Virus record (IMG/VR): IMGVR_UViG_3300032215_000643
Span: 14,923-78,922 of that record
Source of the DNA: a virus
DNA length: 64,000 bases
Strand: one strand, 5' to 3'
Below are positions 24,548 to 62,674 of the stretch, in pieces (position 1 is the stretch's first letter; the number at the start of each line of letters is the position of its first letter). Made by a program: the position numbers and the translations under genes. The notes below the pieces were generated by a model that did not search any database, had not been told where the DNA came from, and saw only the letters and a list, made by a program, of their open reading frames with translations.

Positions 24548-24548
24548 T

Positions 24549-30024: not shown

Positions 30025-30029
30025 GTTAT

Positions 30030-32578: not shown

Positions 32579-32583
32579 TCAGT

Positions 32584-35433: not shown

Positions 35434-35437
35434 TTTA

Positions 35438-36196
35438 ATGTTTTTTAATTCAATAGAAAATTTGATTAAGGTCAATGTTCCAGAATTTCCTGTTGTCATT
35501 CCGACATTTAATAATCCAACATATTTAAAGAAAACTGTTGATTATTTTTCCGAAAGGGGCTTTGAAATCATTGTATTAGATAATGCTTCAACTTACCCTC
35601 CAATGCTAGAGTTGTTGTTTAATTTATCTGAAGAGGATAATATTTTTGTCGTTGCTTTGCCAAGCAATTATGGTCCAAGATATTTTTATGAAAATAAAAA
35701 TTTTTATTCATGGCTTCCTAATCATTTTTTTGCAACAGATCCAGATTTAGAATTTAACAAAAATTTGAAAAAAGAAAATTGGCTTGAGTTAATTGAAGTT
35801 AGCAGAACACTTGGAGTATATAAAGTGGCGGCTGCCCTTACCTTGGATATTGAAGATAGTGAACATGAACTTGATGTTTTGATTTCTAGTATGAATACTA
35901 CTGTTAGAAAAATAGAAAGTGGATATTATGAAAATATTTGCATGGTCACAGATCAGGGTGACACAGTTTACATAGCCCCAACAGATACCACCATGTCTCT
36001 CTATAATAAAGAATTTGAAGGACATTTCATGCTTTCTTGTGTTAGAGTTTCAGGGAAATTTGACACATTGCATTACGGTTGGTTGACTAATCCACCCATC
36101 CCAAAAGAGGAAAAAGATTATTATACAGAAGCCTGTAGAGATAATTTTTATTCATCAGGGGAAGTTGTTAAAAGAGGTCAAGGACCAACTTACTAA
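35438..36196 (+). CDS. GT2-like glycosyltransferase
   Basis: VIPTFN, LDNASTY, TDPD. Confidence 0.7.
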   Translation: MFFNSIENLIKVNVPEFPVVIPTFNNPTYLKKTVDYFSERGFEIIVLDNASTYPPMLELLFNLSEEDNIFVVALPSNYGPRYFYENKNFYSWLPNHFFATDPDLEFNKNLKKENWLELIEVSRTLGVYKVAAALTLDIEDSEHELDVLISSMNTTVRKIESGYYENICMVTDQGDTVYIAPTDTTMSLYNKEFEGHFMLSCVRVSGKFDTLHYGWLTNPPIPKEEKDYYTEACRDNFYSSGEVVKRGQGPTY

Positions 36197-36780
36197 TGCC
36201 TAAATTTTCAGTAATAGCCGTAGATTATGAAAAACATGTTCCTCGCCAAGGAATGATTGATGGATTAAAATCTCTTGCAGAGCAAACCTTTCAAGATTTT
36301 GAACTCATCATTTGTCATGATGGTCCAAAGGAAGTTCCCTATGAAGAAGAAGTAGGCTTTAAAGAATTAGGGATTTCCCCTATAATTATAAATACACCAC
36401 ATCATGTTGGTGACTGGGGTCATTCAAGCCGTGATTTTTCTATGAGGCAGGCTACTGGTGAATACTTTATTCAATTTAATATAGATAATAAATTTTACCC
36501 CACCGCTTTTGAAAAAATAAATGATTGTATTGAAGAAACTTCTTCAAGAGTGGTTATTTTTACAATCCAACACTTCAAAGAGGGTGGTAGATTTATTAAG
36601 GGTGTCCCTCCAACACACGCTCAAATTGATTGTATGCAATTAGTTGCACATAGAAGTGTGTGGGAAGAAATTGGTTATTGGTATAACAAAAATAATGAAT
36701 CTGATGGTTATATTTACACAAATATTGGACAAGAATATCCGTATGTCCATATTGATGAATGTTTAGGGGAAAATTATTAA
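36196..36780 (+). CDS. GT2-like glycosyltransferase, paralog 1 of 3
   Basis: KFSVIA, QTFQDFELII.HDG, FNIDN. Confidence 0.8.
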   Translation: MPKFSVIAVDYEKHVPRQGMIDGLKSLAEQTFQDFELIICHDGPKEVPYEEEVGFKELGISPIIINTPHHVGDWGHSSRDFSMRQATGEYFIQFNIDNKFYPTAFEKINDCIEETSSRVVIFTIQHFKEGGRFIKGVPPTHAQIDCMQLVAHRSVWEEIGYWYNKNNESDGYIYTNIGQEYPYVHIDECLGENY

Positions 36781-37367
36781 TGAAGTTTTCTGTTATTGCA
36801 GTTGACTATGAAAAGCATGTTCCAAGAGAGCGCATGGTTAAAGGTTTGCAATCTTTAGCGAATCAATCATTTCAAGATTTTGAGTTGATTGTAATCCATG
36901 ATGGTCCTAAAGAAATTCCTTATGAGGAAGAGTTTGATTTTTCTGTTTTCCCAAACGAGGTAAAGTTTTTAAATACAGAAACAAGAATGGATAATTGGGG
37001 CCATTCAAGTAGAGATTTAGGTATGAGAAATGCTTCTGGTGAATTCTTTTTCCATTTTAATATTGATAATCTTCTTTATCCAGATTGTTTTGAAAAAATA
37101 AATAATAAGTTAGAGGAAACAACCGCATTGGTTTTATTATTTGCTATTCTTCACTACAAGATTAATAATGGGACTTTTCCTTTTTACGGTCTTCCTCCTG
37201 TTTATCATAACATTGACGCTATTCAATTGGTTGCTCACAGAGAAATTTGGAGCAGTGTTGGATATTGGTATGATTTGCATGAACAGGGTGATAGTGCAAT
37301 CTATGAGAAAATGTGTAAAGATTATGGTTGGGCCTATATAGATGAAGTTTTAGCGGAGAATTATTAA
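36780..37367 (+). CDS. GT2-like glycosyltransferase, paralog 2 of 3
   Basis: Same motifs; start ATG 36780 overlaps the previous stop. Confidence 0.8.
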   Translation: MKFSVIAVDYEKHVPRERMVKGLQSLANQSFQDFELIVIHDGPKEIPYEEEFDFSVFPNEVKFLNTETRMDNWGHSSRDLGMRNASGEFFFHFNIDNLLYPDCFEKINNKLEETTALVLLFAILHYKINNGTFPFYGLPPVYHNIDAIQLVAHREIWSSVGYWYDLHEQGDSAIYEKMCKDYGWAYIDEVLAENY

Positions 37368-37949
37368 ATGAAAGTTTCTATTATTGCAGTTGACTATGAG
37401 CATCACGTTCCAAGGGACGGTGCTTACAGGGGTTTGCTTTCAATTTCTGAGCAAACTTCTAAAGATTTTGAACTTATAATAGTTCATGATGGACCCAAGG
37501 AAATTCCTTATGAGGAAGAGTTTGATTTTAAAGAATTAAATTTAAATCCAGTAATAACCAATACTTCTCACAGGATGAATGATTGGGGGCATTCTTCTAG
37601 GGATTGGGGGATGCGTATGGCAAACGGTGATTATTTCCTGCAATTCAATATTGATAATGTTCTTTACCCAGATGCCATAGAAGAAATTTGTAAAAAGATT
37701 GATGGATCTGGTACGCCAATAATTATTTTTAGTATTATCCATCACAAAGATAATGATAAGGTCTATACAGGAATACCCCCAGACCTGTACAATATAGATT
37801 GTATGCAACTTGTCGGTCACAGGGATATGTGGCAAGAATTGAACTATTGGTACGATAAACGAGATAGTTCTGACGGTTGGATCTATGAAGTTATTACTAG
37901 AAAATATAATTATTCAAATATTGAAAAATGTTTAGGCGAAAACTACTAG
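37368..37949 (+). CDS. GT2-like glycosyltransferase, paralog 3 of 3
   Basis: Same motifs; ends LGENY. Confidence 0.8.
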   Translation: MKVSIIAVDYEHHVPRDGAYRGLLSISEQTSKDFELIIVHDGPKEIPYEEEFDFKELNLNPVITNTSHRMNDWGHSSRDWGMRMANGDYFLQFNIDNVLYPDAIEEICKKIDGSGTPIIIFSIIHHKDNDKVYTGIPPDLYNIDCMQLVGHRDMWQELNYWYDKRDSSDGWIYEVITRKYNYSNIEKCLGENY

Positions 37950-37956
37950 GAGAATT

Positions 37957-38970
37957 GTGAAAAGGGTTTTACTAACCGGAGCGTCTGGTTTTGTGGGAAG
38001 CCATGTACTGCGTCATATTATTTTAAATACAGATTGGTTTGTGGTTTGTCCAACAACCTTTACTCACAAGGGGTTACAGGATAGAATCAGGGTTGCTTTG
38101 GATGACCTTCCAGATGCGTACAAGCGGGTAAAAATTATTCGTTGTGACTTTACCTCTCCAATTTCTCCCATTACTGCCAGAGAGTTTGGTAACGTGGATC
38201 TTGTTATTAATGTGGCAAGTGAAAGTCATGTTGATAGAAGTATCGAAGAGCCTGCCCAGTTTGTTATTAATAATGTGTCATTGATTTGTCACGTTCTTGA
38301 TTGGGCTAGGAATTCAAATATTGAAAAGTTTATTCAAGTTTCTACTGATGAAGTTTATGGTCCTGCTCCTGATGGGTATGCTCATATTGAATGGGAAGAT
38401 CAGCATCTACCTAGTAATCCTTATTCTGCTTCAAAGGCTGCTCAGGAAGATATTGCTTTCTCCTATTGGAGAACTTATGGAGTCCCGTTAATTATTACTA
38501 ATACTATGAATATTATTGGTGAGACTCAAGACCCAGAGAAATATATTCCAATGACTATTAAAAATGTTATTGATGGAGAAAAAGTTTTAATTCATGGTTC
38601 TCCTGATGATGGTAGGATTGGTAGTCGTTTTTATTTACATGCGCGTAATCAGGCTGATGGATTACTTTATGTCTCTAACTTGCCAGCACCTGCATATGGG
38701 GAATCTAATATGCCAGCAAGGTATCATATTGCGGGTGAGCGTGAAGTTGATAATTTAGAGATTGCAAAATTAATTGCAGAATATGTTGGTAAACCTCTTA
38801 ATTATGAAATTGTTGATTTTCATTCTTCAAGGCCCGGTCATGATCTAAGATATGCTCTTAATCAAAATAGGATTGAAAATGCGGGATGGAAGATGCCTCT
38901 TCCGTTTGAAGAATCTTTAGAAAGAACTGTTAAGTGGACATTAAATCATCCCGAATGGCTCATGATCTGA
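37957..38970 (+). CDS. rmlB: dTDP-glucose 4,6-dehydratase-like protein
   Basis: GASGFVG, SESHVDRSI, STDEVYG, YSASKA, RPGHDLRY. Confidence 0.85.
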   Translation: MKRVLLTGASGFVGSHVLRHIILNTDWFVVCPTTFTHKGLQDRIRVALDDLPDAYKRVKIIRCDFTSPISPITAREFGNVDLVINVASESHVDRSIEEPAQFVINNVSLICHVLDWARNSNIEKFIQVSTDEVYGPAPDGYAHIEWEDQHLPSNPYSASKAAQEDIAFSYWRTYGVPLIITNTMNIIGETQDPEKYIPMTIKNVIDGEKVLIHGSPDDGRIGSRFYLHARNQADGLLYVSNLPAPAYGESNMPARYHIAGEREVDNLEIAKLIAEYVGKPLNYEIVDFHSSRPGHDLRYALNQNRIENAGWKMPLPFEESLERTVKWTLNHPEWLMI

Positions 38971-38995
38971 GTTAATACCTGAGATTGGAATAATA

Positions 38996-40036
38996 ATGAA
39001 ACTGTATCGACAAGAAAACCAACTGTGCTTCGATGACATTTTGTTGGTCCCGAATCCATCTGCTGTAGAAAGTAGAAAAAACGTAGATTTGTCTATGTCA
39101 ATTGGATATGGGAATAGAAAGATTGATTTGTATTTGCCTGTTATTTCTTCTCCTATGGATACGGTTACCGAATCTGAAATGGCTGTTGAGGTTGCTAAGT
39201 TTGGTGGTCTTGGAATTATTCATAGGTATTCTAAGATTGAAGATCAGGCGGCTCAGGTTTTTGAAGTTTCTAAAAAAGGTTATGCTGTTGGTGCATCTGT
39301 TCCAACGTCAGTTAGAGATTCAGTGCTTCCTCAAGTAAAGTCATTGGTTTATGTCGGTGCTAAAGTAATTTTAGTTGATACTGCAAATGGTCATAACTTT
39401 GCTGCGATTAAGGCTGTTTCAGAAATTAGAAAAGAGTTTCCAGATATTCATATTATGGCTGGAAATGTTTCTACTTGGGACGGGTTCCTTCATCTTTCTC
39501 AGGCTGGAGCAGATTCAGTTCGCGTAGGTATCGGCGGTGGTTCATGTTGCAGTACACGAATTATGACTGGTCATGGCATTCCGACATTGGCTTCTATTAT
39601 GGAAATTTATGAATATCAAGAACGTCTAGATCTTCCTACGTCTATTATTGCAGATGGAGGAATTAGAAATTCTGGAGATATGGTAAAGTCATTTGCGGCA
39701 GGCGCTGATGCAGTCATGGTTGGATCTATGCTTTCTGGTCACACAGAGTCACCGGGTAATGTTTTTAGGGAAGATGGAAAAGATTACAAGCGAATTCGTG
39801 GCATGGCAAGTTCTCATGCTCAAAAGGATTGGCGTGGTTCTGTAAGTGGTGAAGAGGGCATTTCAACTAAGGTCTTGTTTAAGGGTCCAGCAGAGAACAC
39901 TCTTAATTCTATTAGAAACGGTATTTCAAGTGGTTGTTCTTATGCAGGTGTAGAGAGATTAGAAGAGTTAAGTATTACATCTCAGTATGTAAAAGTTTCA
40001 CCTTTATCTGTAAAGGAGAGTTTGCCTCATGTATGA
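38996..40036 (+). CDS. guaB: IMP dehydrogenase/GMP reductase family protein (no CBS domain)
   Basis: FDDILLVP, SSPMDTV, AGNV, GIGGGSCCSTR, IADGGIR, RGMAS. Confidence 0.85.
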   Translation: MKLYRQENQLCFDDILLVPNPSAVESRKNVDLSMSIGYGNRKIDLYLPVISSPMDTVTESEMAVEVAKFGGLGIIHRYSKIEDQAAQVFEVSKKGYAVGASVPTSVRDSVLPQVKSLVYVGAKVILVDTANGHNFAAIKAVSEIRKEFPDIHIMAGNVSTWDGFLHLSQAGADSVRVGIGGGSCCSTRIMTGHGIPTLASIMEIYEYQERLDLPTSIIADGGIRNSGDMVKSFAAGADAVMVGSMLSGHTESPGNVFREDGKDYKRIRGMASSHAQKDWRGSVSGEEGISTKVLFKGPAENTLNSIRNGISSGCSYAGVERLEELSITSQYVKVSPLSVKESLPHV

Positions 40037-43175: not shown

Positions 43176-43248
43176 ACGCCGGTATCCTAGCGGTTTTGGA
43201 AGCGGTCTTATATACCGTGTATCGTGAGTTCGATTCTCACCCGGCGTA
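43176..43248 (+). tRNA. tRNA-Ile (anticodon TAT)
   Basis: Acceptor ACGCCGG/CCGGCGT; anticodon arm GCGGT-CTTATAT-ACCGT; T-arm GTGAG-TTCGATT-CTCAC; no encoded CCA. Confidence 0.88.
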
Positions 43249-43249
43249 C

Positions 43250-46876: not shown

Positions 46877-47755
46877 ATGATGACAGGAACAACATTGGGT
46901 GGATGGCCCGGTATTAAAACAGCAAAAGAGCAGGGCGTCCTTGTTTGGATTACGGTTCCCGGCACTACGAAGAAAGTTAGATTGCGTAAAGAGGTAGCAC
47001 CAGTTTTTGCTGCTTTTCTTTCAGAAGTTCATAAGCATGTAATTGATCTTAATAAGGGTCCACTAGATGGATGGGAATATCGAGAAGCACGCACAGGTGC
47101 AGGTCTTTCTCAGCACGCCGGGGCGGTTGCGACAGATATGCGTTATGATGTTCTTCTTGCCGATCATAGACGGCACATGACACAGACTCAGATTAATACA
47201 ATGCACGCCTTACTAAATAAGTACACAACAACTAGCGGTAAGCGAGTTTTTGGATGGGGCGGGGATTGGCAAGTTGGCAAGTTTTGTGATGAAATGCATC
47301 TAGAGGCTGTGCAATCATGGTCCCCATACAGCCAAGGTCGCAATGCTACTGTAGCAGATTTCGCTAATGTGCAGAAGAAACTTCATATTAATTCTAATGG
47401 TACGTTTAGTGTTGTTGGTAAGGTTGTTAATCCTGTTGTTAAGCCTGTTCCTGCTGTTGTTGTTAAAAAGCCAGCGACACCACCTTCACCTGTTCCTGTT
47501 GCAGTTAAATCAGTCTCTGTAAAAGATTTTATTTTGGGTAAGTCAAGTGGTAGTGTTGTGACTGTTCAGAAGGCTCTTGCTAAAGAAAAATATTATGGTG
47601 GTGCTATTGATGGGGTCTTTGGACCTAACACCCGCGCTGCATATGCTCACTGGCAGAAGGCTTTGGGTTATTCTGGTGCAGATGCAAATGGTATTCCCGG
47701 CTTATCTTCTCTTACTAGTCTAGGTACAAAGTACAAATTTAAGGTTGTTGCATAA
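46877..47755 (+). CDS. Endolysin (M15-type peptidase plus peptidoglycan-binding domain)
   Basis: R...S.H..AVA.D, WGGDW, DEMHLE; Pro-rich linker; VQKAL...DG.FG..T. Confidence 0.85.
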   Translation: MMTGTTLGGWPGIKTAKEQGVLVWITVPGTTKKVRLRKEVAPVFAAFLSEVHKHVIDLNKGPLDGWEYREARTGAGLSQHAGAVATDMRYDVLLADHRRHMTQTQINTMHALLNKYTTTSGKRVFGWGGDWQVGKFCDEMHLEAVQSWSPYSQGRNATVADFANVQKKLHINSNGTFSVVGKVVNPVVKPVPAVVVKKPATPPSPVPVAVKSVSVKDFILGKSSGSVVTVQKALAKEKYYGGAIDGVFGPNTRAAYAHWQKALGYSGADANGIPGLSSLTSLGTKYKFKVVA

Positions 47756-48204
47756 TGGATGAATTAATTAATGAACTAAAATTATTGCAAGCAAATGTTG
47801 TTGCGATGTATGCTCAGTCACATGGGTATCATTGGAATGTTAAGGGTATGTTGTTTAAAGAGTTGCACGCATTTTTTCTAGAAATTTATGAAGATGTTTA
47901 TGGTTCGCTTGATCCTATTTCTGAGAATATTAGAAAACTTGGTGGGGATGCTCCGTTTGGCCTTAGCACATGGTCTAACAATGCTACATTTGAGGTTAAT
48001 GAAGATCCTAATCTTTCTCCCGTTCAGATGCTTGGCGAATTGATCGTTGTTAATTCAGTTCTTATAACTCAGTTGAAGAAAGTTTTTGTTCTCGCTGATA
48101 CTCAAAATGAGCAGGGTGTTGCTAATTTTATTGCAGAGCGTATTGATCAGCATCAGTTCTGGAATTGGCAGTTGACTGCTACTTTAAGAACTACATTAGC
48201 CTAA
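47755..48204 (+). CDS. dps: Dps family ferritin-like protein
   Basis: HGYHWNVKG..F.ELH.F..EIY...D..SENIR ferroxidase motif. Confidence 0.92.
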   Translation: MDELINELKLLQANVVAMYAQSHGYHWNVKGMLFKELHAFFLEIYEDVYGSLDPISENIRKLGGDAPFGLSTWSNNATFEVNEDPNLSPVQMLGELIVVNSVLITQLKKVFVLADTQNEQGVANFIAERIDQHQFWNWQLTATLRTTLA

Positions 48205-48243: not shown

Positions 48244-48738
48244 ATGACTCCACTTATGCGAGTTATTACTCCCGTCGTTGCCCTTCTTACGACACTTGTC
48301 GTACAGGTACCAATGGCCCAGAGTAGTAATGCAAGTAATGTAGTAGTATCGGCTGGCAGTTCCGTTAAAACTGTTAAAACAACACCAACAATCAAAATGA
48401 TCAGACCGCTTGGACCTACTAAAGGTATCAAGCCTTCTGCATGGACGGGTAAGTATTATTACCCTAAATGGGAATTGGTTCGCAAATGCATTGTAAAAAG
48501 GGAAAGTGAAGGTCAATATAATGTTGTCAGTCACATTTCGTCCAGTGCTGGTGCTTATCAGTTTATCAAATTTTGGAGGCCCATTTTGGCTAAAAAATTA
48601 GGTAAGTCATATTTGGCTTACACTCCAATTAATCATTGGGGCCGCGTTGATCAAGATCACGCTTTTTGGATTGTATGGAATAATGGAAAGGGAAGAAGCA
48701 ATTGGGGACCAGCAGGTGCCCGATATAACTGCTTCTAA
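48244..48738 (+). CDS. Secreted Rpf/SceD-like lytic transglycosylase
   Basis: Signal peptide; CIVKRES...GAYQF...QD...W. Confidence 0.75.
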   Translation: MTPLMRVITPVVALLTTLVVQVPMAQSSNASNVVVSAGSSVKTVKTTPTIKMIRPLGPTKGIKPSAWTGKYYYPKWELVRKCIVKRESEGQYNVVSHISSSAGAYQFIKFWRPILAKKLGKSYLAYTPINHWGRVDQDHAFWIVWNNGKGRSNWGPAGARYNCF

Positions 48739-48785: not shown

Positions 48786-49127
48786 ATGTACGAGTATAAA
48801 GCAACAGTAGAAAAGATTATTGATGGTGACACGATTGATGTCATGATTGATTTAGGTTTTTATGTTTATAAGGTAGAGCGAGTTCGTTTAGCAAGAATTA
48901 ATTGTCCAGAACTTTCGACTCCCGAAGGACAGGTTTCTAAGCAATTTGTTATTGATTATCTGGCACAGAAGCAGGTAACCATTAAGACACAAAAGAATAT
49001 TTATGATAAATATGGTCGTTGGATTGCTGATGTTTTTGTTGCTGATCAATGTCTTAATGACATTCTTCTAGAAAAGAATCTTGCTGTTCATTGGCCTGCT
49101 AAGGTGGCAACGGGAGGTCTTTCCTGA
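48786..49127 (+). CDS. Thermonuclease (SNase) family protein
   Basis: IIDGDT, RVRL..INCPE, DKYGR. Confidence 0.88.
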   Translation: MYEYKATVEKIIDGDTIDVMIDLGFYVYKVERVRLARINCPELSTPEGQVSKQFVIDYLAQKQVTIKTQKNIYDKYGRWIADVFVADQCLNDILLEKNLAVHWPAKVATGGLS

Positions 49128-50549: not shown

Positions 50550-51062
50550 ATGACTTGTATCGTGGCTTTGGAAGATAATGGAAAGATTTACATGGGTGCT
50601 GACTCAGCAGCCGTGGACGGGGAAGCAATTTCATTAAGAAAAGAGCCAAAGATATTCAAATGTGGGGAATTCTTAATTGGTTTTTCTCATAGTTTTAGGT
50701 ATGGTCAGATAGTTGAGCATTGTTTTAAGCCTCCTAAAGTTACGGAAAATAATATTGTTAAGTATATGGTTACTAAGTTTGTTCCTGAGTTAAGAATAAC
50801 TCTTGCGATGAACGAGTTTGAAGAAAAAGAATCTTGTATGATTATTGGGCATAATGGTAAAATCTTTTATGTGGAGAGTGATTGGAATGTTGGTTATGAT
50901 GAGACAAACTATCATTCGATAGGTTCAGGGGCACCAGCAGCGTTTGGATCTTTATATTCCACAAAGGGTCAGCATCCTTTAGATCGTGTAAGAATTGCTT
51001 TAGAAGCAGCACAAGAATTTACAACGAGTGTCCGTGGCCCATTTAACTATTTAGATATTTAA
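50550..51062 (+). CDS. HslV/proteasome-beta-like Ntn peptidase
   Basis: Thr2 nucleophile (MTCIV), GADS, K, IGSG. Confidence 0.8.
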   Translation: MTCIVALEDNGKIYMGADSAAVDGEAISLRKEPKIFKCGEFLIGFSHSFRYGQIVEHCFKPPKVTENNIVKYMVTKFVPELRITLAMNEFEEKESCMIIGHNGKIFYVESDWNVGYDETNYHSIGSGAPAAFGSLYSTKGQHPLDRVRIALEAAQEFTTSVRGPFNYLDI

Positions 51063-51424: not shown

Positions 51425-51606
51425 ATATTGATGATCTGTATGAAAGAATAACTCAAGAGGTAACTGAAAAATTTCATGATAAATATATTTCAACGGGTCA
51501 TCGATATAATGATGAAACAATGCATATTGCAGAAGAGTACGTTCGATTTATTATTGATGAATTTACATCAGCCCTTTGGGATGAAAGAGAGATTATAGAT
51601 GAATAA
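51421..51606 (+). CDS. Hypothetical protein
   Basis: Coupled ORF. Confidence 0.5.
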   Translation: MNIDDLYERITQEVTEKFHDKYISTGHRYNDETMHIAEEYVRFIIDEFTSALWDEREIIDE

Positions 51607-52894
51607 ACGCAGCGAAATTGCTGTGGCTATTTTTGGTTTAGGTTTGGGACTTGTTTTTGGAAGTTCCATTTTTATTGTACCTAAGCCCTTCCTTGGTCTG
51701 AGTTCCCTTGGTCATATTTTTGCTATGACTGGAACCTACCTATGTCTTGTAATGATCCTCTTGTCTTCTAGAATCCCCATACTTGAACGTGGAGTAGGGC
51801 ATGACAAAATGATACTATGGCATAGGAAAATAGCCCCCTACGCTCTCCTGCTCATCTTTCTTCACATAAACATGAACACTTTATCTTATGCTAAAGGTGT
51901 TCGTAAAACTTTTATGGATCAGATCCAACTTTTTTATACAGAATACCCTTGGATGCCTCAAGCAATCATTGCTGGTTTAATGATGTTTATATTAGGAATT
52001 GTAAGTTATAAAAAAATCAGGACCATGATGCGGTATGAAGTTTGGTGGTCTTTACATTTATTATTTTATGTTTCTGTAGTATTAGCATTTGGGCATCAAT
52101 TAGAAGTTGGAAGTATTTTTGTTAAGCACCCTTGGATTAAGTCAGGGTGGATTGTATTATATGTAGGAACATTCTTAATTATTTTTGTAACAAGGTTCCT
52201 ATTTCCAGCCTTGTTTTCTTACAAACATAAATTAAAAATTGATCGTGTAATTAGAGAAAACAAAGATGTTTATAGTGTTTATATAAACGGGAAAGATCTT
52301 GACAAAGTGTATGCTCATGGTGGACAATTCTTTCAGTGGAGATTTCTTACAAGAAAATGGTGGTGGCAGGCACATCCATATTCCCTGTCCCGTTCTCCAA
52401 AAAATGGACAACTTAGAATCACTGTTAAAATTTTAGGTGATCATAGTTATGATGTAGCAAAGAGATTACGTCCCGGCACTAGAATTTTTGCTGAAGGACC
52501 GTACGGAATTTTTACTTCAAAGAGGCGGGAAGGAAATCTAATAGCAGCGTTTGCTTCAGGTATTGGAATCACCCCAATCTTGGCGATGTTAGAAGAATTT
52601 CCTAAAAGGGCAGACGTTATTTTAATTTACAGAGTTTCTAGTGTCGATGACATAATTCTTTATAAAGATTTAGAAAGTTTATTTTTAACAAACCGATGGA
52701 AATTATATTATTTAATCGGTGATCGAAAAGAACATCCGATGACTGCTAATCACATACGTCAGTACATCCCAGATCTTGGTTTTAGAGAAGTTTATGTATG
52801 TGGGTCAGAAGGTTTTATGGATGATGTAATTACGCTTGCATTAAATGCAGGTGTTATGGATAATAAGATATACCACGAATCATTTTCGTTCTAA
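51599..52894 (+). CDS. Ferric reductase-like transmembrane oxidoreductase (heme b, FAD and NAD(P)H domains)
   Basis: About 6 TM helices with four His (WHRK, LHIN, LHLL, GHQL); HPYSLS, GDHS, EGPYG, SGIGITP, YVCG, ESFSF. Confidence 0.92.
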   Translation: MNKRSEIAVAIFGLGLGLVFGSSIFIVPKPFLGLSSLGHIFAMTGTYLCLVMILLSSRIPILERGVGHDKMILWHRKIAPYALLLIFLHINMNTLSYAKGVRKTFMDQIQLFYTEYPWMPQAIIAGLMMFILGIVSYKKIRTMMRYEVWWSLHLLFYVSVVLAFGHQLEVGSIFVKHPWIKSGWIVLYVGTFLIIFVTRFLFPALFSYKHKLKIDRVIRENKDVYSVYINGKDLDKVYAHGGQFFQWRFLTRKWWWQAHPYSLSRSPKNGQLRITVKILGDHSYDVAKRLRPGTRIFAEGPYGIFTSKRREGNLIAAFASGIGITPILAMLEEFPKRADVILIYRVSSVDDIILYKDLESLFLTNRWKLYYLIGDRKEHPMTANHIRQYIPDLGFREVYVCGSEGFMDDVITLALNAGVMDNKIYHESFSF

Positions 52895-52903
52895 GGAGAA
52901 CAC

Positions 52904-53386
52904 ATGCAAGTCTTTATGTCAGAGTACACGTTTGAAGAGTCTGCTAAGGTACTAGACAATAAGCGTTTGGTTAAGCAATTACTTGAGGGTCGTCAGATTC
53001 TCGCGGCGCTTGCAGGGCAGACTAAAGGGTGGCGTAACCATCCGGCAACAAGGATGTTTGAGGGATATGAACCTGCCCTTTTTGATTACCTATACTATGT
53101 TGCTAAGGAAATGGAACAGCGTGGATACAAGACTGAGAATAATTGGAATGAAATTGTAAGGCTTGGATTAGCCCACTTTATCTTTGATGGACCTTACGAG
53201 ATGCCTCCTTGGTTTGTTGATCGGGCGACTCTTCATAGTGTTGTAACTACTCATCGTAGAAGCCTTTACAATAAAGCCCCAGAGTTGTATCCTCAGTATG
53301 AGTATGAAGCATCTATCGGTGCTGATTTTGTTTGTTGTGATCGTTGTAACTATTATTGGCCTTCTCACATAAAGGAAAAAGTATAA
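52904..53386 (+). CDS. MSMEG_6728-family pyrimidine-dimer DNA glycosylase-like protein
   Basis: MQVF...LDNKRL.KQ..E..QIL...GWRNHPA. Confidence 0.8.
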   Translation: MQVFMSEYTFEESAKVLDNKRLVKQLLEGRQILAALAGQTKGWRNHPATRMFEGYEPALFDYLYYVAKEMEQRGYKTENNWNEIVRLGLAHFIFDGPYEMPPWFVDRATLHSVVTTHRRSLYNKAPELYPQYEYEASIGADFVCCDRCNYYWPSHIKEKV

Positions 53387-53613
53387 TGAACATTGAATTT
53401 AAAGATCTGCGTATTAGTCCAGAAGAATTTTTGACTATTGTTTCAAGGGTCTATGAGAAAGTTGACCTTGGCCCTAATATGTATGAGCGTGGGCACCCAG
53501 AGGATGTTTACGTTAATCTTGAGGTTGTTTTTAAGAGCGTCGGTCAGGGTATTGTTGAATATATTGAGCAGGTTAAAATGGCTGTTCAGACTAGTAATCG
53601 AAAGGAAAAGTGA
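53386..53613 (+). CDS. Hypothetical protein
   Basis: ATG overlaps the previous stop. Confidence 0.5.
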   Translation: MNIEFKDLRISPEEFLTIVSRVYEKVDLGPNMYERGHPEDVYVNLEVVFKSVGQGIVEYIEQVKMAVQTSNRKEK

Positions 53614-53828
53614 TGGCTTCTATTCTTACTACAGCAACTGTAGATCATCAGGGAAATGAATTGTCTGTTCATTGTACTGATGCTAATACTGGTATTACCA
53701 TGAAGGTTATTGTACCTTCAGATGCCATGAACGAAGACACGCGCAAGTCAGTTGGTATCCTTGCGGCTAATATGCCGGAAGCATTTTTGAGAGGCGTCAT
53801 GATGATTGCAGAGAGTCCAGACGAATGA
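53610..53828 (+). CDS. Hypothetical protein
   Basis: Coupled ORF with RBS. Confidence 0.5.
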   Translation: MMASILTTATVDHQGNELSVHCTDANTGITMKVIVPSDAMNEDTRKSVGILAANMPEAFLRGVMMIAESPDE

Positions 53829-54067
53829 TTAAGGTAACTGTTACCGAAGATTCGTGGTACCCTGTCTATACTTTAGATAAATCATCCAGTGTTTTGGATG
53901 ACACAATTGAAATTCCAGAGGCTATTTATTCTCGTTACCTCAAAATCATGAATGATTTTGAGGATATGCAAGATGAGATTCGTCAGTTCCAAACTGAGCA
54001 GAATGATTACGAGTATGAGAAGCATAGTTCGTGGACTCAAGTAAAAATGTTAAGGTATCGGGATTAA
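53825..54067 (+). CDS. Hypothetical protein
   Basis: Coupled ORF. Confidence 0.5.
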   Translation: MIKVTVTEDSWYPVYTLDKSSSVLDDTIEIPEAIYSRYLKIMNDFEDMQDEIRQFQTEQNDYEYEKHSSWTQVKMLRYRD

Positions 54068-54068
54068 G

Positions 54069-54239
54069 ATGGATGATCTTGAGCGGGATATGGAAAATTA
54101 TTATCGGATTAAGTTTGCTTTAGAGATAGAGGATAATATCTATAATTCTAAAGACAATCCTATTGATGAGGATTCCCGCTGGTTTTTTAATGGAATGCGT
54201 TACGCCATGATGCTTTTGCGTTATGGTTCCTCGCCTTAG
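54069..54239 (+). CDS. Small hypothetical protein whose stop codon lies inside tRNA-Arg
   Basis: 56-aa ORF MDDLERDMENYY...; below the ORF-track cutoff. Confidence 0.45.
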   Translation: MDDLERDMENYYRIKFALEIEDNIYNSKDNPIDEDSRWFFNGMRYAMMLLRYGSSP

Positions 54240-54302
54240 TTCAGGGGATAGAACGCGAAACTTCTAATTTCGATGTCGTTGGTTCGAATCCAACAGGTGA
54301 GA
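54230..54302 (+). tRNA. tRNA-Arg (anticodon TCT)
   Basis: Acceptor CTCGCCT/AGGTGAG; D-arm GTTC/GAAC; CGAAA-CTTCTAA-TTTCG; GTTGG-TTCGAAT-CCAAC. Confidence 0.9.
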
Positions 54303-54312
54303 CAATTATTTA

Positions 54313-54615
54313 ATGGAGATTTTTATGGATGAGATTGATGCTCTAATTGCAGAACTTGTTGATGCAGGAGCGTTGTTGGTTGACGGTATGCTTTTGGATG
54401 AGTTTACATATCGGTTTGATATGAAGATTCTTAAAGAAAAATACCCAGATATTTATGATATTGTTATGGAAGATATTGACGATACTATGTTGGAATTGTT
54501 GGATCGTGAATATATTTCTGTTGAGTATGATGAGAATCTAGAAGCACGTTTTTCTCTTACTGAAAAAGGTTATGATAATTATAAAATAATTAAGGAGAGT
54601 CAGTCTGATGAGTGA
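54313..54615 (+). CDS. Acidic hypothetical protein (winged-helix-like)
   Basis: ORF ending 'FSLTEKG'. Confidence 0.55.
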   Translation: MEIFMDEIDALIAELVDAGALLVDGMLLDEFTYRFDMKILKEKYPDIYDIVMEDIDDTMLELLDREYISVEYDENLEARFSLTEKGYDNYKIIKESQSDE

Positions 54616-54904
54616 TTATATAAATGTTCCCGTTGATGTGGCGCGGGATATTGCTAAGTTTATTCGCAATAATGATAATGGTAATTTAGATCATTGGGCT
54701 GAGCATCTTGACCCCCTTAATTTATCAGATAGAATTTTTAGGATTGTTAATTTTTATATTAAATCTGAGGGTGATCCATACATGGCTACTAATGAGATTC
54801 TTGAAGAATTTGTTAATGTTATTGGTAGTGTTAAACTTATTGAAGATTCTTTTATTATTAAAAAAGATTTAATCAATTTAATTGAAAATGGTGCTAATGT
54901 TTAA
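54608..54904 (+). CDS. Hypothetical protein
   Basis: RBS AGGAG; coupled ORF. Confidence 0.5.
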   Translation: MSDYINVPVDVARDIAKFIRNNDNGNLDHWAEHLDPLNLSDRIFRIVNFYIKSEGDPYMATNEILEEFVNVIGSVKLIEDSFIIKKDLINLIENGANV

Positions 54905-55804
54905 TTGTCCATCGGAACAAAATTAATAAAGGGCACCACGGCCCTTGTCATATTAACATTTTTAACGACCTTTATTGTTGTGTTTGCCGCGACAAAAACT
55001 CCCGCCAAATTAATTGCTAAACCTCCAGTTCTACCAACAAAAAGTTCTGTAGGATGGAAGCCTAAAATTAAAAAACTTAAAATTTTTAATGGTCAAATGA
55101 CTATAACAAAAGCGGGAACTAAGATCGATGGTTATCAGATTAATGGAAATGTTGTTGTAGAGGCTAGTAATGTTACGATAACTAGATCTTTAATTGTTTC
55201 TCCAACGACTTGGTATGCCATTAGGCAATGGAGTCAGTTTAAAAATTTAAATATGTCTTATGTAGAAATAACTGCTGCTAAGAATGCTCATCCAGATACA
55301 GCAATTCTTGCAGGAACTGGAATGAAATTAGATCACATTTATGTGCATGGCACACAACGGGGCATTGTTGCAAATACAGGTATGAAATTAACAAATTCTT
55401 ATATTGATAATTTTGTTAATCATAGTACCAGTCATGCTCAAGCAATACTTTCTTCTGGTAATGTTAGAAATGTTTATCTGTACAATAATGTTTTAGGATG
55501 CCATACTGGTAATTGTACATCGGCAATAAGTATGTTCCCTGAACAAGGGCCAAATGTCGGTTGGACAATAAAATATAATCGTCTTAGGGGCGGTTCTTAT
55601 TGTGTGTATCTTGGTAATTCTGGAAAAGAAAAACCAAATACTCATATAGATTTTGAAAATAATCAGTTTGATACTCTATATAATATCAATTGTGGAACAT
55701 ATGGTCCAGTAGCATCTTGGTCTAAAATTCCGACAAATACATGGAAAAATAACACATGGTATTCCCCTTGCGGGATAAAAGATGGTAAGTTGATTAGGAT
55801 TTAA
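54905..55804 (+). CDS. Exported right-handed beta-helix (pectin-lyase-like) protein
   Basis: N-terminal TM/signal segment; repeated beta-helix rungs (NVTITRS, TNSYID, NVYLYNN, FENNQF). Confidence 0.65.
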   Translation: MSIGTKLIKGTTALVILTFLTTFIVVFAATKTPAKLIAKPPVLPTKSSVGWKPKIKKLKIFNGQMTITKAGTKIDGYQINGNVVVEASNVTITRSLIVSPTTWYAIRQWSQFKNLNMSYVEITAAKNAHPDTAILAGTGMKLDHIYVHGTQRGIVANTGMKLTNSYIDNFVNHSTSHAQAILSSGNVRNVYLYNNVLGCHTGNCTSAISMFPEQGPNVGWTIKYNRLRGGSYCVYLGNSGKEKPNTHIDFENNQFDTLYNINCGTYGPVASWSKIPTNTWKNNTWYSPCGIKDGKLIRI

Positions 55805-55805
55805 T

Positions 55806-55943
55806 ATGGCTAAGGGAACAGGTAAATTTGGTTGGTGTTTAACTAATCAACATGATAATTGTAGAATAGTTTTAACAGTTTTAGAAAGAAAATGTACATG
55901 CGAATGTCATGTTACTCAACAAAATACTGATAATAATGTATAA
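55806..55943 (+). CDS. Small Cys/His-rich protein (absent from ORF track)
   Basis: MAKGTGKFGWCLTNQHDNC...CTCECH. Confidence 0.55.
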   Translation: MAKGTGKFGWCLTNQHDNCRIVLTVLERKCTCECHVTQQNTDNNV

Positions 55944-55979
55944 TGAAAGTATATCTTTAGAAAGTAGGTGAATTAATTC

Positions 55980-56270
55980 ATGGCAGATAATAATCAGCAG
56001 TTACCAAATGCTCAGCAGCCTTCAGCCCGTCCGAACGTAACATCAGAGGTCGGTCCAACAAATGCAGATAATCAATCTTTGACAAACCGTCCCCTTTGGG
56101 ATGGTGGTTACGAAGCAGTAAATCTTGGTACAAACGAGCCTAAGACAATGGGTGGCGGTACTCCATTTGGTGGTTCAAATGTTTCAATGACAACTGGACA
56201 GCCTTACGGTGGTCCAGTCGTTAGCACTGAGCAGGGTAAAGTAAGCAACGAAACCCGTCCAACAGCATGA
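55980..56270 (+). CDS. Low-complexity disordered protein
   Basis: TATAAT at 55939 and AGGTG RBS upstream. Confidence 0.55.
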   Translation: MADNNQQLPNAQQPSARPNVTSEVGPTNADNQSLTNRPLWDGGYEAVNLGTNEPKTMGGGTPFGGSNVSMTTGQPYGGPVVSTEQGKVSNETRPTA

Positions 56271-56286
56271 TCCATGATTAAATAAT

Positions 56287-56745
56287 ATGGGAGAAAATCA
56301 GGGAAAAGTTTCACCATTGACTTCCTCCAGTAGTAATCATGATGAACAATCAGATAATTATGTAGAATACTACGTTAAAGGTGGTGAAAAAATGAACGAG
56401 AAAAATAGCGAAACAACCGAACCAGATCCTAATGGAGACATGGCTGTTCAAAAGGATGTCGCTGGTGAGGGTACTTATAGCACTACCGCTAATTCCACCG
56501 TAGACGCCCCTTCTTCTTCTGATACAACAGAACCTATGGCTAAAGCAGCCTGTGCCGGTGATTGTTGTTCAGATTGTTCCTCCGATTGTGGTGGGGATTG
56601 TTGTGAAAAGTGCATGGGTATGTCAAAGTCTGCTGATCAGCAGGATGACGGTTCTGATAAAGAGCCTGATGCAGATGTTGATGATATTCAGAAGAGTTAT
56701 GAGCCAAAAAGTTTTTGGGGAAATTTCTTCCTTCCGGTAGACTAA
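56287..56745 (+). CDS. Acidic protein with a metallothionein-like Cys cluster (likely start 56392)
   Basis: CAGDCCSDCSSDCGGDCCEKC; GGTGGTG RBS before ATG 56392. Confidence 0.55.
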   Translation: MGENQGKVSPLTSSSSNHDEQSDNYVEYYVKGGEKMNEKNSETTEPDPNGDMAVQKDVAGEGTYSTTANSTVDAPSSSDTTEPMAKAACAGDCCSDCSSDCGGDCCEKCMGMSKSADQQDDGSDKEPDADVDDIQKSYEPKSFWGNFFLPVD

Positions 56746-56763
56746 TTTACCCGCTTTACTTAC

Positions 56764-56795
56764 GGACAGCGGCCTTGTGCCGCTGTTCTGTTTTT
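56764..56795 (+). terminator. Rho-independent terminator
   Basis: GGACAGCGGC-CTTGT-GCCGCTGTTC followed by a T-tract. Confidence 0.7.
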
Positions 56796-56800
56796 AGGAG

Positions 56801-57205
56801 ATGAATATGAGAATTTTAATTGTTGGTTCTAAGAATTGGACTAACTATGATGAGTTGATGAGAAATATTACAGTTGCTATTGAAGATCTTACTCAGCGGA
56901 ACCCTGATGATAATAAGATTGTTTTTGTTCATACGGGGATTGCTGGTGCTGAAAATATGGTTACTGAGTATATTGGTAAAGTTGAAAGGTATATGAAGCA
57001 GAAGGGTTTCAGTGTTAAAGAAGAGTTAGTTCGTAATAAGTATAGTGGTAATGCTATGGATAAGGTTACTTCTGATTATGATATGATTTCTTCCGGTGCT
57101 GACTGTGCGTTAGTTTTTATTAGACAGTCTTGTAAACGGTCTGAATATTGTCTGAGACTTATCAAAGAATCGGATATCCCCGTCAAACTAGTAAAAGAAA
57201 ACTGA
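56801..57205 (+). CDS. SLOG/YspA (DUF2493)-like protein
   Basis: MRILIVGSKNW.NY...VH.G..GAE...ADCALVF. Confidence 0.65.
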   Translation: MNMRILIVGSKNWTNYDELMRNITVAIEDLTQRNPDDNKIVFVHTGIAGAENMVTEYIGKVERYMKQKGFSVKEELVRNKYSGNAMDKVTSDYDMISSGADCALVFIRQSCKRSEYCLRLIKESDIPVKLVKEN

Positions 57206-57267
57206 TACAATTAGTAAGGATAGTCCTAATTGGGTTATCAAAAAAACAAGGAGAAATAAATATACTC

Positions 57268-58149
57268 ATGAGTAGAGTTAAGAAAACGAAATATAATAAG
57301 AAAGCAATTTTTGCAATTAGTGCTATTGCTGGTATTGGGGCTGCTGGTATCGCAACTAGTGCTATGGCAGACATTTCATTTCCCCTTCCTGTTGATGCAC
57401 CGGATTTGGAAAGTTTAACTGTTGTCGCAAACGCTAATTCAACTGTTTATGCGAGGAATGCTCAGATGTCTTTGACGACAACTAGCAGCAAGAATATCGT
57501 AGTTCCCGGCAGTACAGTTACATATACCTACAAGGTACTTAATACTGGTACTGTAGATTTCAAAAATTTAGTAATCGAGGATGACAAATGTTCACCAATC
57601 GCTTATGTAAGCGGAAATAATTCAGATCCGCTTCTTAACGTAGGCGAGACTTGGACATATACTTGTTCTACAAAGGTTCTTAAGGACCAGACAAATAATG
57701 CTAAGGTTACAGGAACTCCTGTACTTCCTTCTAGCACCGCTGCCCCTACACCAACACCAACTGGTACCGTTACACCAACACCAACACCTAGCCCAACTGC
57801 TACTGGCAGCACCATCAAAGATGGTACATACCTTGGCAGGCAGGTAAATGTTAATGTTACTGATCAGGGTCTTGTTTATCCAATTCAGATTCAAGCAACA
57901 ATTTCTGGCGGTAAGATCACGGCAATTACTTGTCCAGTCTTCGGTGCCACTGATACTACATCTAAGAATATTGGTAAGTATAATGTTGCCACTATTGCTT
58001 CCATGAACGCTGATCCCGCAAATCCAACAATGATCTTTGAGGCTTTGGCTGCTCAAAGTTCAAATATTGCTGCTATTTCAGGAGCAACCTATACTACAAC
58101 TGGGTTCAAGGCATCTCTTGCTGATGCTCTTACGCAGGCAGGTTTCTGA
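57268..58149 (+). CDS. Secreted FMN-binding (flavinylation-motif) protein with Ig-like domain
   Basis: Signal peptide ending AMA; Ig-like TYTYKVLNTG...L.VGETWTYTC; PT linker; DGTY.G...GKITAI...AQSSNI.AISGATYTT.GF..SL..AL. Confidence 0.85.
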   Translation: MSRVKKTKYNKKAIFAISAIAGIGAAGIATSAMADISFPLPVDAPDLESLTVVANANSTVYARNAQMSLTTTSSKNIVVPGSTVTYTYKVLNTGTVDFKNLVIEDDKCSPIAYVSGNNSDPLLNVGETWTYTCSTKVLKDQTNNAKVTGTPVLPSSTAAPTPTPTGTVTPTPTPSPTATGSTIKDGTYLGRQVNVNVTDQGLVYPIQIQATISGGKITAITCPVFGATDTTSKNIGKYNVATIASMNADPANPTMIFEALAAQSSNIAAISGATYTTTGFKASLADALTQAGF

Positions 58150-58262: not shown

Positions 58263-59111
58263 ATGACATATCCGTTAGGTCGTAATATAAATCATGATCC
58301 ACGTTCAAGAGCATTTGCTTTTGATGGTTCATCAATCACGCTTAAGTCAACACGTTGGCACAGAAATGTTCCATGTTTTGATCAAGGCAATTTGGGGAGT
58401 TGTACCGGGAATAGCGCGGTCGGACTTATTTCGACTGATCCTTATTTTAGTATTCTTCCTGCAGGTACAGAGTTAGATGAAAAGGTAGCAGTTTCTGTTT
58501 ACTCAGATGCTACTAAGATTGATAATGCACCGGGAAGTTATCCTCCCAACGATACAGGTTCAGACGGTTTATCCGTTGCAAAAGTTTTGCAGAGCCGTGG
58601 ACTTATCAGCGGTTTCACACATTGTTTTTCATTAAACGATGTGCTTGCTGCTCTAACTCAACATCCAATTATGATTGGTGTTAATTGGTATCATAATATG
58701 TTCCATCCTGATTCTAATGGTATTCTAAATATTCCTGCTGGAGATTATGTAGCAGGTGGACATGAATTTATTCTTGATGAAATTGATGTAGAACGTCAAT
58801 TGGTCGGAATGCAGAATTCATGGGGTGCTGATTGGGGTGTTGATAATGGTCGTGCTTACATGTCGTTTGATACACTAGGTAGACTTCTTCAAGAGCAAGG
58901 GGATGCTACAGTCCTTGTTGGTCTTAATAAGCCTGCACCTCAGCCTTCACCAACACCTGTTCCTCCAACTCCTACACCTCAGCCTACGGATGCGGATCTT
59001 GCATTCTGGAATGATATTAAGAGTTGGGTTCTTTGCCCACATTACGGTAAAACTAAAATTGCATCAAATAGAATCCTTGCTTGGGCACGTTCCAAGGGTT
59101 TCACAAATTAA
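58263..59111 (+). CDS. Papain-like C1 cysteine peptidase
   Basis: DQG.LGSC, GGH, QNSWG catalytic set; Pro/Thr linker. Confidence 0.85.
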   Translation: MTYPLGRNINHDPRSRAFAFDGSSITLKSTRWHRNVPCFDQGNLGSCTGNSAVGLISTDPYFSILPAGTELDEKVAVSVYSDATKIDNAPGSYPPNDTGSDGLSVAKVLQSRGLISGFTHCFSLNDVLAALTQHPIMIGVNWYHNMFHPDSNGILNIPAGDYVAGGHEFILDEIDVERQLVGMQNSWGADWGVDNGRAYMSFDTLGRLLQEQGDATVLVGLNKPAPQPSPTPVPPTPTPQPTDADLAFWNDIKSWVLCPHYGKTKIASNRILAWARSKGFTN

Positions 59112-59719: not shown

Positions 59720-60004
59720 ATGAAGCAACGACATGGGGCGGTTATTGTAAAGTCCGGTCGTGTTATGTCTGTAGGAATTAATAAGTGGCGTAATCATCCA
59801 GAGATTATTGAGACAGAGAAGATTAAGCAGGAATGTTCTGTTCATGCAGAAGTTGATGCGCTTAGTCGTGTTAAGAATCCTAGAGGTGCTACTATTTATA
59901 TTGCTAGAGTTAATCGGTTAGGCGAATCAGGTTTGTCCCGACCGTGTAATAATTGTTTTCGGGATCTTGTAAAATCAGGTATTAACAAGATTATTTACAC
60001 TTAG
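59720..60004 (+). CDS. Cytidine/deoxycytidylate deaminase family protein (true start uncertain, probably upstream)
   Basis: HGAVIV, HAE and PCxxC Zn motifs. Confidence 0.85.
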   Translation: MKQRHGAVIVKSGRVMSVGINKWRNHPEIIETEKIKQECSVHAEVDALSRVKNPRGATIYIARVNRLGESGLSRPCNNCFRDLVKSGINKIIYT

Positions 60005-62136: not shown

Positions 62137-62361
62137 ATGTCAACGTATGCAAAACTAAACTACGAACAAGCCCACGCTTTTGTAGAAAAGAATAAGAAGA
62201 TTGGTTTCTATTGGAATGGTTGGGATATGGTTAAGTGGACTCCCGGCCCCAATGGTTTCATGCAAAAGAATGGTGAGTTTCGTAATGGTACTTGGGGTTT
62301 CTCTGTGAGGATTCCAGTTACTGAAGATGGTACATGGCGGGTACTAGAAAAGTATGTCTAA
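62137..62361 (+). CDS. Hypothetical protein
   Basis: AAGGA RBS; Trp/Gly-rich. Confidence 0.6.
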   Translation: MSTYAKLNYEQAHAFVEKNKKIGFYWNGWDMVKWTPGPNGFMQKNGEFRNGTWGFSVRIPVTEDGTWRVLEKYV

Positions 62362-62674
62362 TCTAATTAAACAACTTGGATTAGAGGAAGATAAAGTACA
62401 ATGGTATCATCTGTCTGCATGTAAGAACATGAGCATCAATTGGTTTTATGATGATTATGAAGATGACAAGCAGTTAGCGGTTCAAATTGACCAGTTATGT
62501 TTGCACTGCCCTGTTTCTACTTTCTGTCTTCTTGATGGGGTGGAAAATAAGGATAAGGGTGTTCGTGGCGGTATCTACCTAGATCTTGGTAGGACTGATA
62601 AGAATCATAATAAGCATAAAACCCCAGAGGTTTGGAAAGCGTTAAGGAAATTACATGGAAAGAATCTTTTATAA
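62354..62674 (+). CDS. whiB: WhiB-family Fe-S transcription regulator
   Basis: AC...CxxCPV...C and GVRGG. Confidence 0.85.
   Translation: MSNLIKQLGLEEDKVQWYHLSACKNMSINWFYDDYEDDKQLAVQIDQLCLHCPVSTFCLLDGVENKDKGVRGGIYLDLGRTDKNHNKHKTPEVWKALRKLHGKNLL

Follow-up and report, generated by a model that had tools for sequence, protein, structure and literature searches.

A freshwater actinophage lineage retains genes for a NOX/MsrQ-like reductase and a predicted exported flavin carrier related to an actinobacterial electron-transfer system

Does a phage that encodes a membrane reductase of the NOX type, together with a predicted exported protein of the flavin mononucleotide (FMN)-binding family, carry parts of an electron path across the membrane of its host? 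The question is raised by two genes, at 51599-52894 and 57268-58149, in a stretch of 64,000 nucleotides of viral DNA (hereafter the window, all of which was analysed) that corresponds to bases 14923-78922 of the IMG/VR record IMGVR_UViG_3300032215_000643, which is linear, 78,922 bases long and about 64% complete. We lean towards the answer that the phage took up two of the three components of the MsrQ-like flavinylation system and has retained them over a long time, such that electrons would pass from reduced nicotinamide adenine dinucleotide (phosphate) (NAD(P)H) to the reductase, from there to the flavin protein and finally to an acceptor outside. The two genes and their parts are as follows, FAD standing for flavin adenine dinucleotide:

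51599..52894, + strand: predicted NOX/MsrQ-like NAD(P)H-dependent di-heme transmembrane reductase, 431 amino acids (Pfam, invariant residues, PDB profile matches)
51725-52087, + strand: Ferric_reduct domain, residues 43-163 (Pfam, 57.8 bits, cut-off 28)
51821, 51863, 52055 and 52094, + strand: codon starts of the predicted heme ligands His75, His89, His153 and His166
52262-52507, + strand: FAD_binding_8 domain, residues 222-303 (Pfam, 29.7 bits, cut-off 22)
52553-52828, + strand: NAD_binding_1 domain, residues 319-410 (Pfam, 27.4 bits, cut-off 22)
57268..58149, + strand: predicted exported Ig-like and FMN_bind protein, 293 amino acids (Pfam, alignments, AlphaFold2, hydropathy)
57268-57369, + strand: putative signal peptide (by eye and hydropathy)
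57466-57717, + strand: DUF7507 Ig-like domain, residues 67-150 (Pfam, 35 bits, cut-off 27)
57718-57819, + strand: Pro/Thr linker, residues 151-184
57880-58131, + strand: FMN_bind domain (PF04205), residues 205-288 (Pfam, 29 bits, cut-off 22)
58087..58089, + strand: codon of Thr274, the predicted FMN attachment site in A-A-I-S-G-A-T (family invariance)

Both genes are intact, and their domains and catalytic residues are conserved. In an alignment of 14 reductase sequences (that of the window and 13 homologues, with identity down to 45%), the four predicted heme ligands, His75, His89, His153 and His166, are invariant and fall into two pairs, His75/His89 and His153/His166, with the spacing of 13 and 12 residues that is the NOX pattern. 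Also invariant are the FAD motif HPYS259-262, the C-terminal Phe431, the NAD(P)H motif G321xG323xT325P326 (GIGITP321-326) and C401G402. A profile of the family matches the NOX chains of Streptococcus pneumoniae (8qt6 and 8qq7; E about 1e-18), as well as DUOX1 and NOX2. Homologues of the reductase number in the thousands, and the cellular ones, with identity of up to 50%, come from Actinomycetota; the closest homologues sit on metagenome contigs of 98-116 kb (P0003, P0004, P0006/P0141 and P0014/P0147).

The flavin protein is less straightforward at its N-terminus. Its longest open frame runs from a TTG at 57148, and the family alignment favours the ATG at 57268, the start that the first-pass annotation had taken; from there the protein has a Lys-rich stretch, a hydrophobic core at residues 14-28 and the residues AMA followed by D at 32-35, which we judged, by eye and from hydropathy, to be a putative Sec signal peptide. 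Two Cys residues of the DUF7507 domain are invariant in the family, which is compatible with the predicted export of the protein. Among 20-22 homologues, the last three residues of S271-G-A-T274 are invariant and the Ser is almost so. AlphaFold2, run with a 22-sequence alignment, models the protein as two confident domains with a disordered linker between them, and the modelled C-terminal domain superposes on the crystal structure of an FMN-binding domain (8p2a) with a template-modelling score of 0.89 on the target, a root-mean-square deviation of 1.9 Å and 33% identity. A first-pass annotation made from the window's letters had described an intact four-His di-heme domain with complete FAD and NAD(P)H motifs in the one protein, and a signal peptide, an Ig-like domain, a Pro/Thr linker and an FMN_bind domain with an SGAT motif in the other; the Pfam matches above cut-off and the alignments bear out both descriptions, the signal peptide being called by eye.

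Where do such genes occur together in cells? Using profiles built from two Pfam-verified examples, we searched 80 cellular reductase loci. In 74 of the 80, the reductase gene has an FMN_bind open reading frame (ORF) immediately 3' of it and in the same orientation; ApbE adjoins in 69, and both are present in 68, or in 68 of the 74 loci that have at least 1.8 kb of DNA downstream. The association of the two families with the flavin transferase ApbE in Actinobacteria, which the first-pass annotation had given as known, is thus found as an operon at most informative loci, and it is a published system: the MsrQ-like flavinylation system comprises 1797 clusters, mostly actinobacterial, of which 1437 have an NAD-binding domain, and it is functionally uncharacterised, with iron reduction suggested for a subset (Meheust et al., 2021, eLife; PMC8238504). 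Since the cellular reductase nearly always has an FMN_bind partner, a flavin protein is probably what this reductase subfamily naturally reduces.

It is in operons of this host type that the phage genes have their origin, and the motif around the flavinylation site speaks to the same relationship. The textbook ApbE motif is D-x-x-[S/T]-G-A-[S/T], with Asp at position -6 (PMC12052999). In the phage flavin-protein family this position is Ala in 79 of 90 members, the other 11 being without a scorable motif. Among 95 FMN_bind partners encoded beside a cellular reductase it is Ala in 39, Gln in 31 and Asp in five, AxxSGA[T/S] being the commonest form of the motif, and other short cellular FMN_bind proteins mostly have Asp. 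The Ala at -6 therefore ties the phage protein to the partners of the MsrQ-like operon. The change of this Asp to Ala had minor effects only, in the one substrate tested (PMC12052999). A second, longer FMN_bind protein is encoded a few kilobases from many of the cellular operons (about 1.5 kb after the reductase in L010, L011, L013 and L017, and about 6 kb before it in L012, L014, L015 and L019), so that the cellular system may have more than one flavin carrier.

The third component, ApbE (PF02424), was found neither in the entire 78.9-kb record nor in four related viral records, the largest of 95.5 kb (76% complete); the searched records together cover about 104 kb of a lineage genome that we estimate at about 120-125 kb. 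When the ends of the related records were compared for closing the genome no overlap was found, so that about 20 kb remains unseen. In the order that contains a Nanopelagicales metagenome-assembled genome (MAG), ApbE is present in 152 of 201 genomes, and two genomes of 1.3 Mb of that order have a complete operon of reductase, FMN_bind and ApbE at loci of 44-47% GC. The first-pass proposal of a phage that depends on host ApbE, made because none lay in the window, can in this respect be extended to the whole record and its relatives, and the likely type of host does carry the enzyme. The phage protein would then be flavinylated by host ApbE.

Is the window phage DNA throughout, and are the two genes at home in it? 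Its source is a whiB-encoding freshwater actinophage. The window has a GC content of 37%, every sizeable ORF lies on the + strand, and the hallmark genes include the following:

13628-14851, + strand: DnaB helicase (phage hallmark)
16985-20260, + strand: DnaE-type polymerase (phage hallmark)
41337-43172, + strand: large terminase TerL (phage hallmark)
43590-44999, + strand: tail fibre (phage hallmark)
46877-47755, + strand: endolysin with Peptidase_M15_4 and PG_binding_1 domains
62354-62674, + strand: whiB

A whiB gene is the usual marker of actinophages (PMC10914622). The reductase and flavin-protein genes have a GC content at third codon positions (GC3) of 28% and 29%, respectively, and the best cellular loci have an overall GC content of 56-75%, a difference which argues that both genes are long-term residents of the phage. 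Nine reductases of the phage type group in a single clade (SH-aLRT 98) with long internal branches. This clade adjoins sequences from the 1.3-Mb genomes, with their low-GC operon loci, and from a genome of 1.7 Mb; the sister relation is only suggestive, because of amino-acid bias and one very long neighbouring branch. Gene order is kept in three related viral contigs with 68-97% reductase identity, a fourth contig being too short: endolysin, ferritin/Dps and glycosyltransferase are followed at some distance by the reductase and a denV-like gene, and these in turn by the flavin protein and a papain-like peptidase. Flanking viral genes on both sides, synteny in related viruses and a phage-like codon composition are the marks of a viral auxiliary gene, and both genes bear them.

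These same data dispose of the idea that the genes are cellular DNA misjoined to a viral contig, or so recent a pick-up that they have no role in the phage. As a metagenome assembly of about 64% completeness, the record is the kind of sequence in which such an error could arise; yet the same gene order is found in four viral contigs that come from different samples, the genes on either side are those of a phage, the GC3 of 28-29% is phage-like and unlike that of every cellular homologue found, and the reductases form a single deeply branched clade. We consider contamination or chance acquisition barely credible, and rejected it on the clade, the GC3 and the conserved gene order. Among GenBank phages (INPHARED) there was no DNA match and no relative of the flavin protein, and the reductase gave weak partial matches only; a search of the ESM Atlas returned no usable match.

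Within the window lineage, the reductase and the flavin protein are retained together: the three related viral contigs that reach far enough all carry both genes, at reductase identities down to 68%. In addition, three pairs of homologues have longest contigs of equal size (115,607 for P0006/P0141, 100,303 for P0014/P0147 and 23,750 for P0009/P0133), and these sizes, the sole basis of the pairing, suggest co-occurrence down to 54% identity. Does it follow that the two proteins work together? It might be that they act independently, the reductase alone, in the manner of SpNOX, and the Ig-like and FMN_bind protein as the product of a mobile gene that plugs into the reductase and ApbE of the host. 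We think this less likely than a joint path, though it is the main rival to it, given joint retention to 68% reductase identity (to 54% if the contig pairings hold) and given that the cellular reductase is almost always accompanied by an FMN_bind partner. The match of the reductase profile to the stand-alone SpNOX structures is in its favour, as are the separation of the genes in the window and the distribution of the flavin protein among other phages.

It is these last two points, above all, that weigh against the reading that we prefer. The genes lie 4.4 kb apart, as the first-pass annotation had cautioned, with 11 unrelated ORFs and one tRNA between them, namely a denV-like glycosylase, a tRNA-Arg and ten ORFs with no assigned function, one of which has weak SLOG/GTP-binding-like matches. 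Features between the genes include:

52904-53386, + strand: pyrimidine-dimer DNA glycosylase of the T4 endonuclease V type (PF03013, 4.5e-23)
54230-54303: tRNA-Arg(TCT)
56764..56788, + strand: terminator-like hairpin with a 10-bp stem, seven G-C pairs and a T-run (consensus match only)

The hairpin is the best terminator-like one of the region, and it stands between the reductase and FMN_bind blocks; promoter-like sites in the region were not above chance. MsrQ-like clusters are delimited by an apbE or FMN_bind gene within about five genes, and in the window the FMN_bind gene is the twelfth ORF downstream of the reductase; in one relative (L005) it is about the fifth, 1.8 kb away. In one relative, too, the FMN_bind and papain-like genes have moved nearer to the reductase as a two-gene unit, independently of the reductase.

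The same weight attaches to the phages in which the flavin protein occurs by itself. A profile scan of viral contigs found six more actinophage contigs, of 50-58% GC, that encode the Ig-like and FMN_bind protein at 45-50% identity, and in the whole records of five of the six neither a Ferric_reduct gene nor ApbE was found, the reductase-profile search having recovered the gene from the window record as a positive control. Two of these reductase-free phages, G207 (70.4 kb, with terminal repeats) and G211 (44.4 kb), are rated complete. The position of the gene varies: it lies before a papain-like peptidase gene in L137, between genes for a tail fibre and an M15 endolysin in L138, L141 and L142, inside the tail module in L140, and close to an integrase and a repressor in the metagenome contigs L091 and L092. 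A metagenome scan with the family returned mostly short contigs, with many unrelated DUF7507 repeat proteins, and no reductase or ApbE. Capture of both genes from a single operon is at most a possibility, because the FMN_bind domain of the phage is only 30-40% identical to the cellular operon partners. Moreover, SpNOX-type enzymes work without a flavin partner (PMC11031084). The phage records being 64-76% complete, the unseen part of the genome may yet hold a phage ApbE. The assignment to an actinobacterial host is itself drawn from whiB, composition and the tree, and the actual host matters, because some small genomes of the order gave no ApbE match.

What emerges is that the reductase and FMN_bind genes are not an obligate pair. 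The reductase-free phages and the varied neighbourhoods argue that the flavin carrier is an independent, mobile gene of actinophages, to which the reductase was added in the window lineage. The claim that the phage carries both ends of an electron path therefore holds in that both genes are present and co-occur in the lineage, and fails in so far as it implied a dedicated pair, against which stand the hairpin and the complete phages without reductase. Domain searches across related phages, the check that had been proposed for it, gave the same divided answer, with both genes in three of three lineage contigs and no reductase in five other phages. Tentatively, and with less assurance than for the path itself, we suggest that a mobile accessory gene, that of the Ig-like and FMN_bind protein, has spread through freshwater actinophages (37-58% GC), depending entirely on host ApbE and tapping a host MsrQ-like reductase, and that the window lineage in addition captured a reductase of its own.

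In cells the architecture is rare: it was found in one of 401 sampled cellular genomes of the class. That genome, an actinobacterial MAG of 3.0 Mb (G028:C29; L146:10034-12363), has tandem Ig-like and FMN_bind genes, encoding 297 and 461 amino acids, in a chromosomal, non-phage setting, divergent from a Cu-oxidase_2 (multicopper-oxidase-domain) gene and with no reductase or ApbE nearby; the same tandem pair is present on the metagenome contigs L093 and L096.

The neighbours of the flavin-protein gene bring in a further alternative, in which the protein, exported to the cell wall together with the wall hydrolases, would be an envelope factor for lysis or for the exclusion of a second phage, its flavin serving locally in redox or sensing and having no connection with the phage reductase. 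Directly downstream lies the following gene:

58263..59111, + strand: papain-like protein (C1-like, phrog_16701), 282 amino acids, with its own Pro/Thr linker and a short C-terminal domain

Both relatives whose contigs extend to this point have the papain-like gene directly after the FMN_bind gene. It recurs, at 53% identity, 4 bp after the Ig-like and FMN_bind gene of an unrelated phage with a complete genome of 70 kb (L137:10818-11759). Besides this recurrent neighbour, an envelope role would fit the placement between tail fibre and M15 endolysin in three phages, the SLT-like or M15 genes within 3-4 kb in L139 and L091, and the putative signal peptide with an Ig-like domain of the surface-protein kind. 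However, accessory genes often adjoin lysis cassettes without a role in lysis, and we know of no lysis mechanism that uses a flavoprotein. The neighbours in L140 and in L091/L092 are not lysis genes, and electron transfer is the role suggested by the flavinylation Thr and the FMN_bind fold, both of them strictly conserved. We regard an envelope factor as distinctly improbable. As for the papain-like protein, it gave only weak cysteine-protease matches and may be a second lysin or a processing protease; the notion that it might be an analogue of the flavin transferase was dropped, papain-type Cys, His and Asn-Ser-Trp motifs being recognisable by eye. A 164-amino-acid gene of the window (48244-48738) has homologues near the FMN_bind gene in L139 and L091, one of them with a weak SLT match.

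To return to the electron path that we favour, the proposal draws on homologous enzymes of the NOX family and on ApbE-dependent systems. The reductase would take electrons from cytosolic NAD(P)H via FAD and pass them across the membrane through its two bis-His b hemes. The flavin protein would be exported by Sec, host ApbE would attach FMN to Thr274, and the protein would accept electrons outside the membrane and hand them to an acceptor. The Ig-like domain and Pro/Thr linker stand in place of the plain low-complexity linker of the host protein. Because related phages carry the flavin carrier alone, it can evidently run on a host reductase, and by adding its own reductase the window lineage would have raised the electron supply. 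The reduction of iron and the disposal of NAD(P)H, both put forward in the first-pass annotation, are possible roles. Fe(III) is the leading candidate for the acceptor, since some of the cellular systems are linked to an iron transporter. In the phage the sole hint towards iron, and a weak one, is a ferritin/Dps gene:

47755..48204, + strand: ferritin/Dps-like gene (PF00210, 2.5e-15; phrog_3636)

This gene directly follows the endolysin gene, 3.4 kb upstream of the reductase, is conserved with 69-97% identity in the related phages L002, L004 and L005, and may be linked to iron or to peroxide protection. A search for IdeR/DtxR iron boxes, allowing up to three mismatches, found no site.

Other genes of the same region and of the window at large may be mentioned here. 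The pyrimidine-dimer glycosylase gene, directly 3' of the reductase, is kept in the relatives, and ultraviolet repair suits a phage of surface water. The accessory region further includes a staphylococcal-nuclease-like gene (48786-49127), an HslV-like peptidase (phrog_1040; 50550-51062), a SLOG/YspA-like protein (56801-57205) and a short dCMP-deaminase-like ORF (59720-60004). A low-GC (31-34%) block at 24500-40000 holds about 18 genes for proteins of 200-450 amino acids, among them a HAD hydrolase/nucleotidyl-transferase-like protein and a dehydrogenase, and a tRNA-Ile(TAT) gene lies directly after the terminase gene (43176-43249).

The MsrQ-like system is among the most widespread uncharacterised redox systems of Actinobacteria, and the retention under selection of two carrier parts, with the recurrence of the carrier in unrelated phages, argues that the system matters for the physiology of the infected cell. 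Were the spread of a mobile, host-dependent carrier confirmed, viruses would be seen for the first time to encode components of an extracytosolic, flavin-based chain of electron transfer, and infecting phages would reshape the redox or iron chemistry outside the cells of abundant lake actinobacteria. The finding would add electron export across the membrane as a new class of phage auxiliary genes, and would link freshwater viral infection to iron or redox chemistry. The phage proteins, small and easily expressed, also offer material for probing the function of the MsrQ-like system, and the conserved Ig-like extension, which is common in phages but seldom seen in cells, may be a clue to the acceptor or to a cell-wall docking site. 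The first-pass annotation knew of no such phage auxiliary system, and among open papers and preprints, subscription journals being outside that scope, we likewise found no published description in phages; the word 'phage' occurs neither in Meheust et al. (2021; PMC8238504) nor in a 2024 follow-up.

How, then, does the phage pair compare with known systems? SpNOX of S. pneumoniae (PMC5676040, PMC11031084; 8qq7, 8qt6) is likewise a single chain of about 400 amino acids with six helices, two hemes and an FAD/NAD(P)H domain. The profile match to it (E about 1e-18) extends over 290 residues, with weak sequence similarity across the membrane portion. Both enzymes have the same His spacing, an FAD motif of the HPxS/T type and an aromatic residue at the C-terminus. 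In contrast, SpNOX reduces O2 alone and is encoded in an operon without a flavinylated partner or ApbE.

In Listeria, PplA is a surface FMN_bind protein that is flavinylated outside the cell and passes electrons to extracellular acceptors, including ferric iron. Electrons enter that chain via Ndh2, quinone and EetA/B, PplA being a lipoprotein with two FMN_bind domains, and its genes are chromosomal. The flavin-based extracellular electron transfer of Listeria monocytogenes, with PplA flavinylated by FmnB, is mentioned in PMC9973259. A surface-exposed FMN_bind protein and ApbE-type flavinylation outside the cell, both predicted for the phage, are what the two have in common, whereas the Listeria system has no NOX-type heme reductase at its entry and is not viral.

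Among viruses, cyanophages carry electron-transport genes such as those for plastocyanin, ferredoxin, PTOX and psbA, which act inside the cell in photosynthetic electron flow. These, too, are viral versions of redox components of the host; they cooperate with host partners, and selection maintains them. None, however, is an extracytosolic flavinylated carrier or a NOX-type reductase.

The closest counterpart is the cellular MsrQ-like system, and this kind of system is itself already known in bacteria. Its operon holds the closest cellular homologues of the phage reductase (45-50% identity), which shares with it PF01794, the four-His two-heme pattern and the C-terminal FAD/NAD domain, and the phage partner is a predicted exported FMN_bind protein with [S/T]GA[S/T] in the same AxxSGAT form. 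Unlike the cellular system, that of the phage is virus-borne, its records yielded no apbE, its genes are about 1.8-4.4 kb apart rather than adjacent and probably belong to separate transcription units, and its carrier has an added DUF7507 Ig-like domain. What is new, then, is the absence of a detected ApbE, the split layout, the Ig-like extension on the carrier, the residence of these components in a phage and the spread of the carrier among unrelated actinophages.

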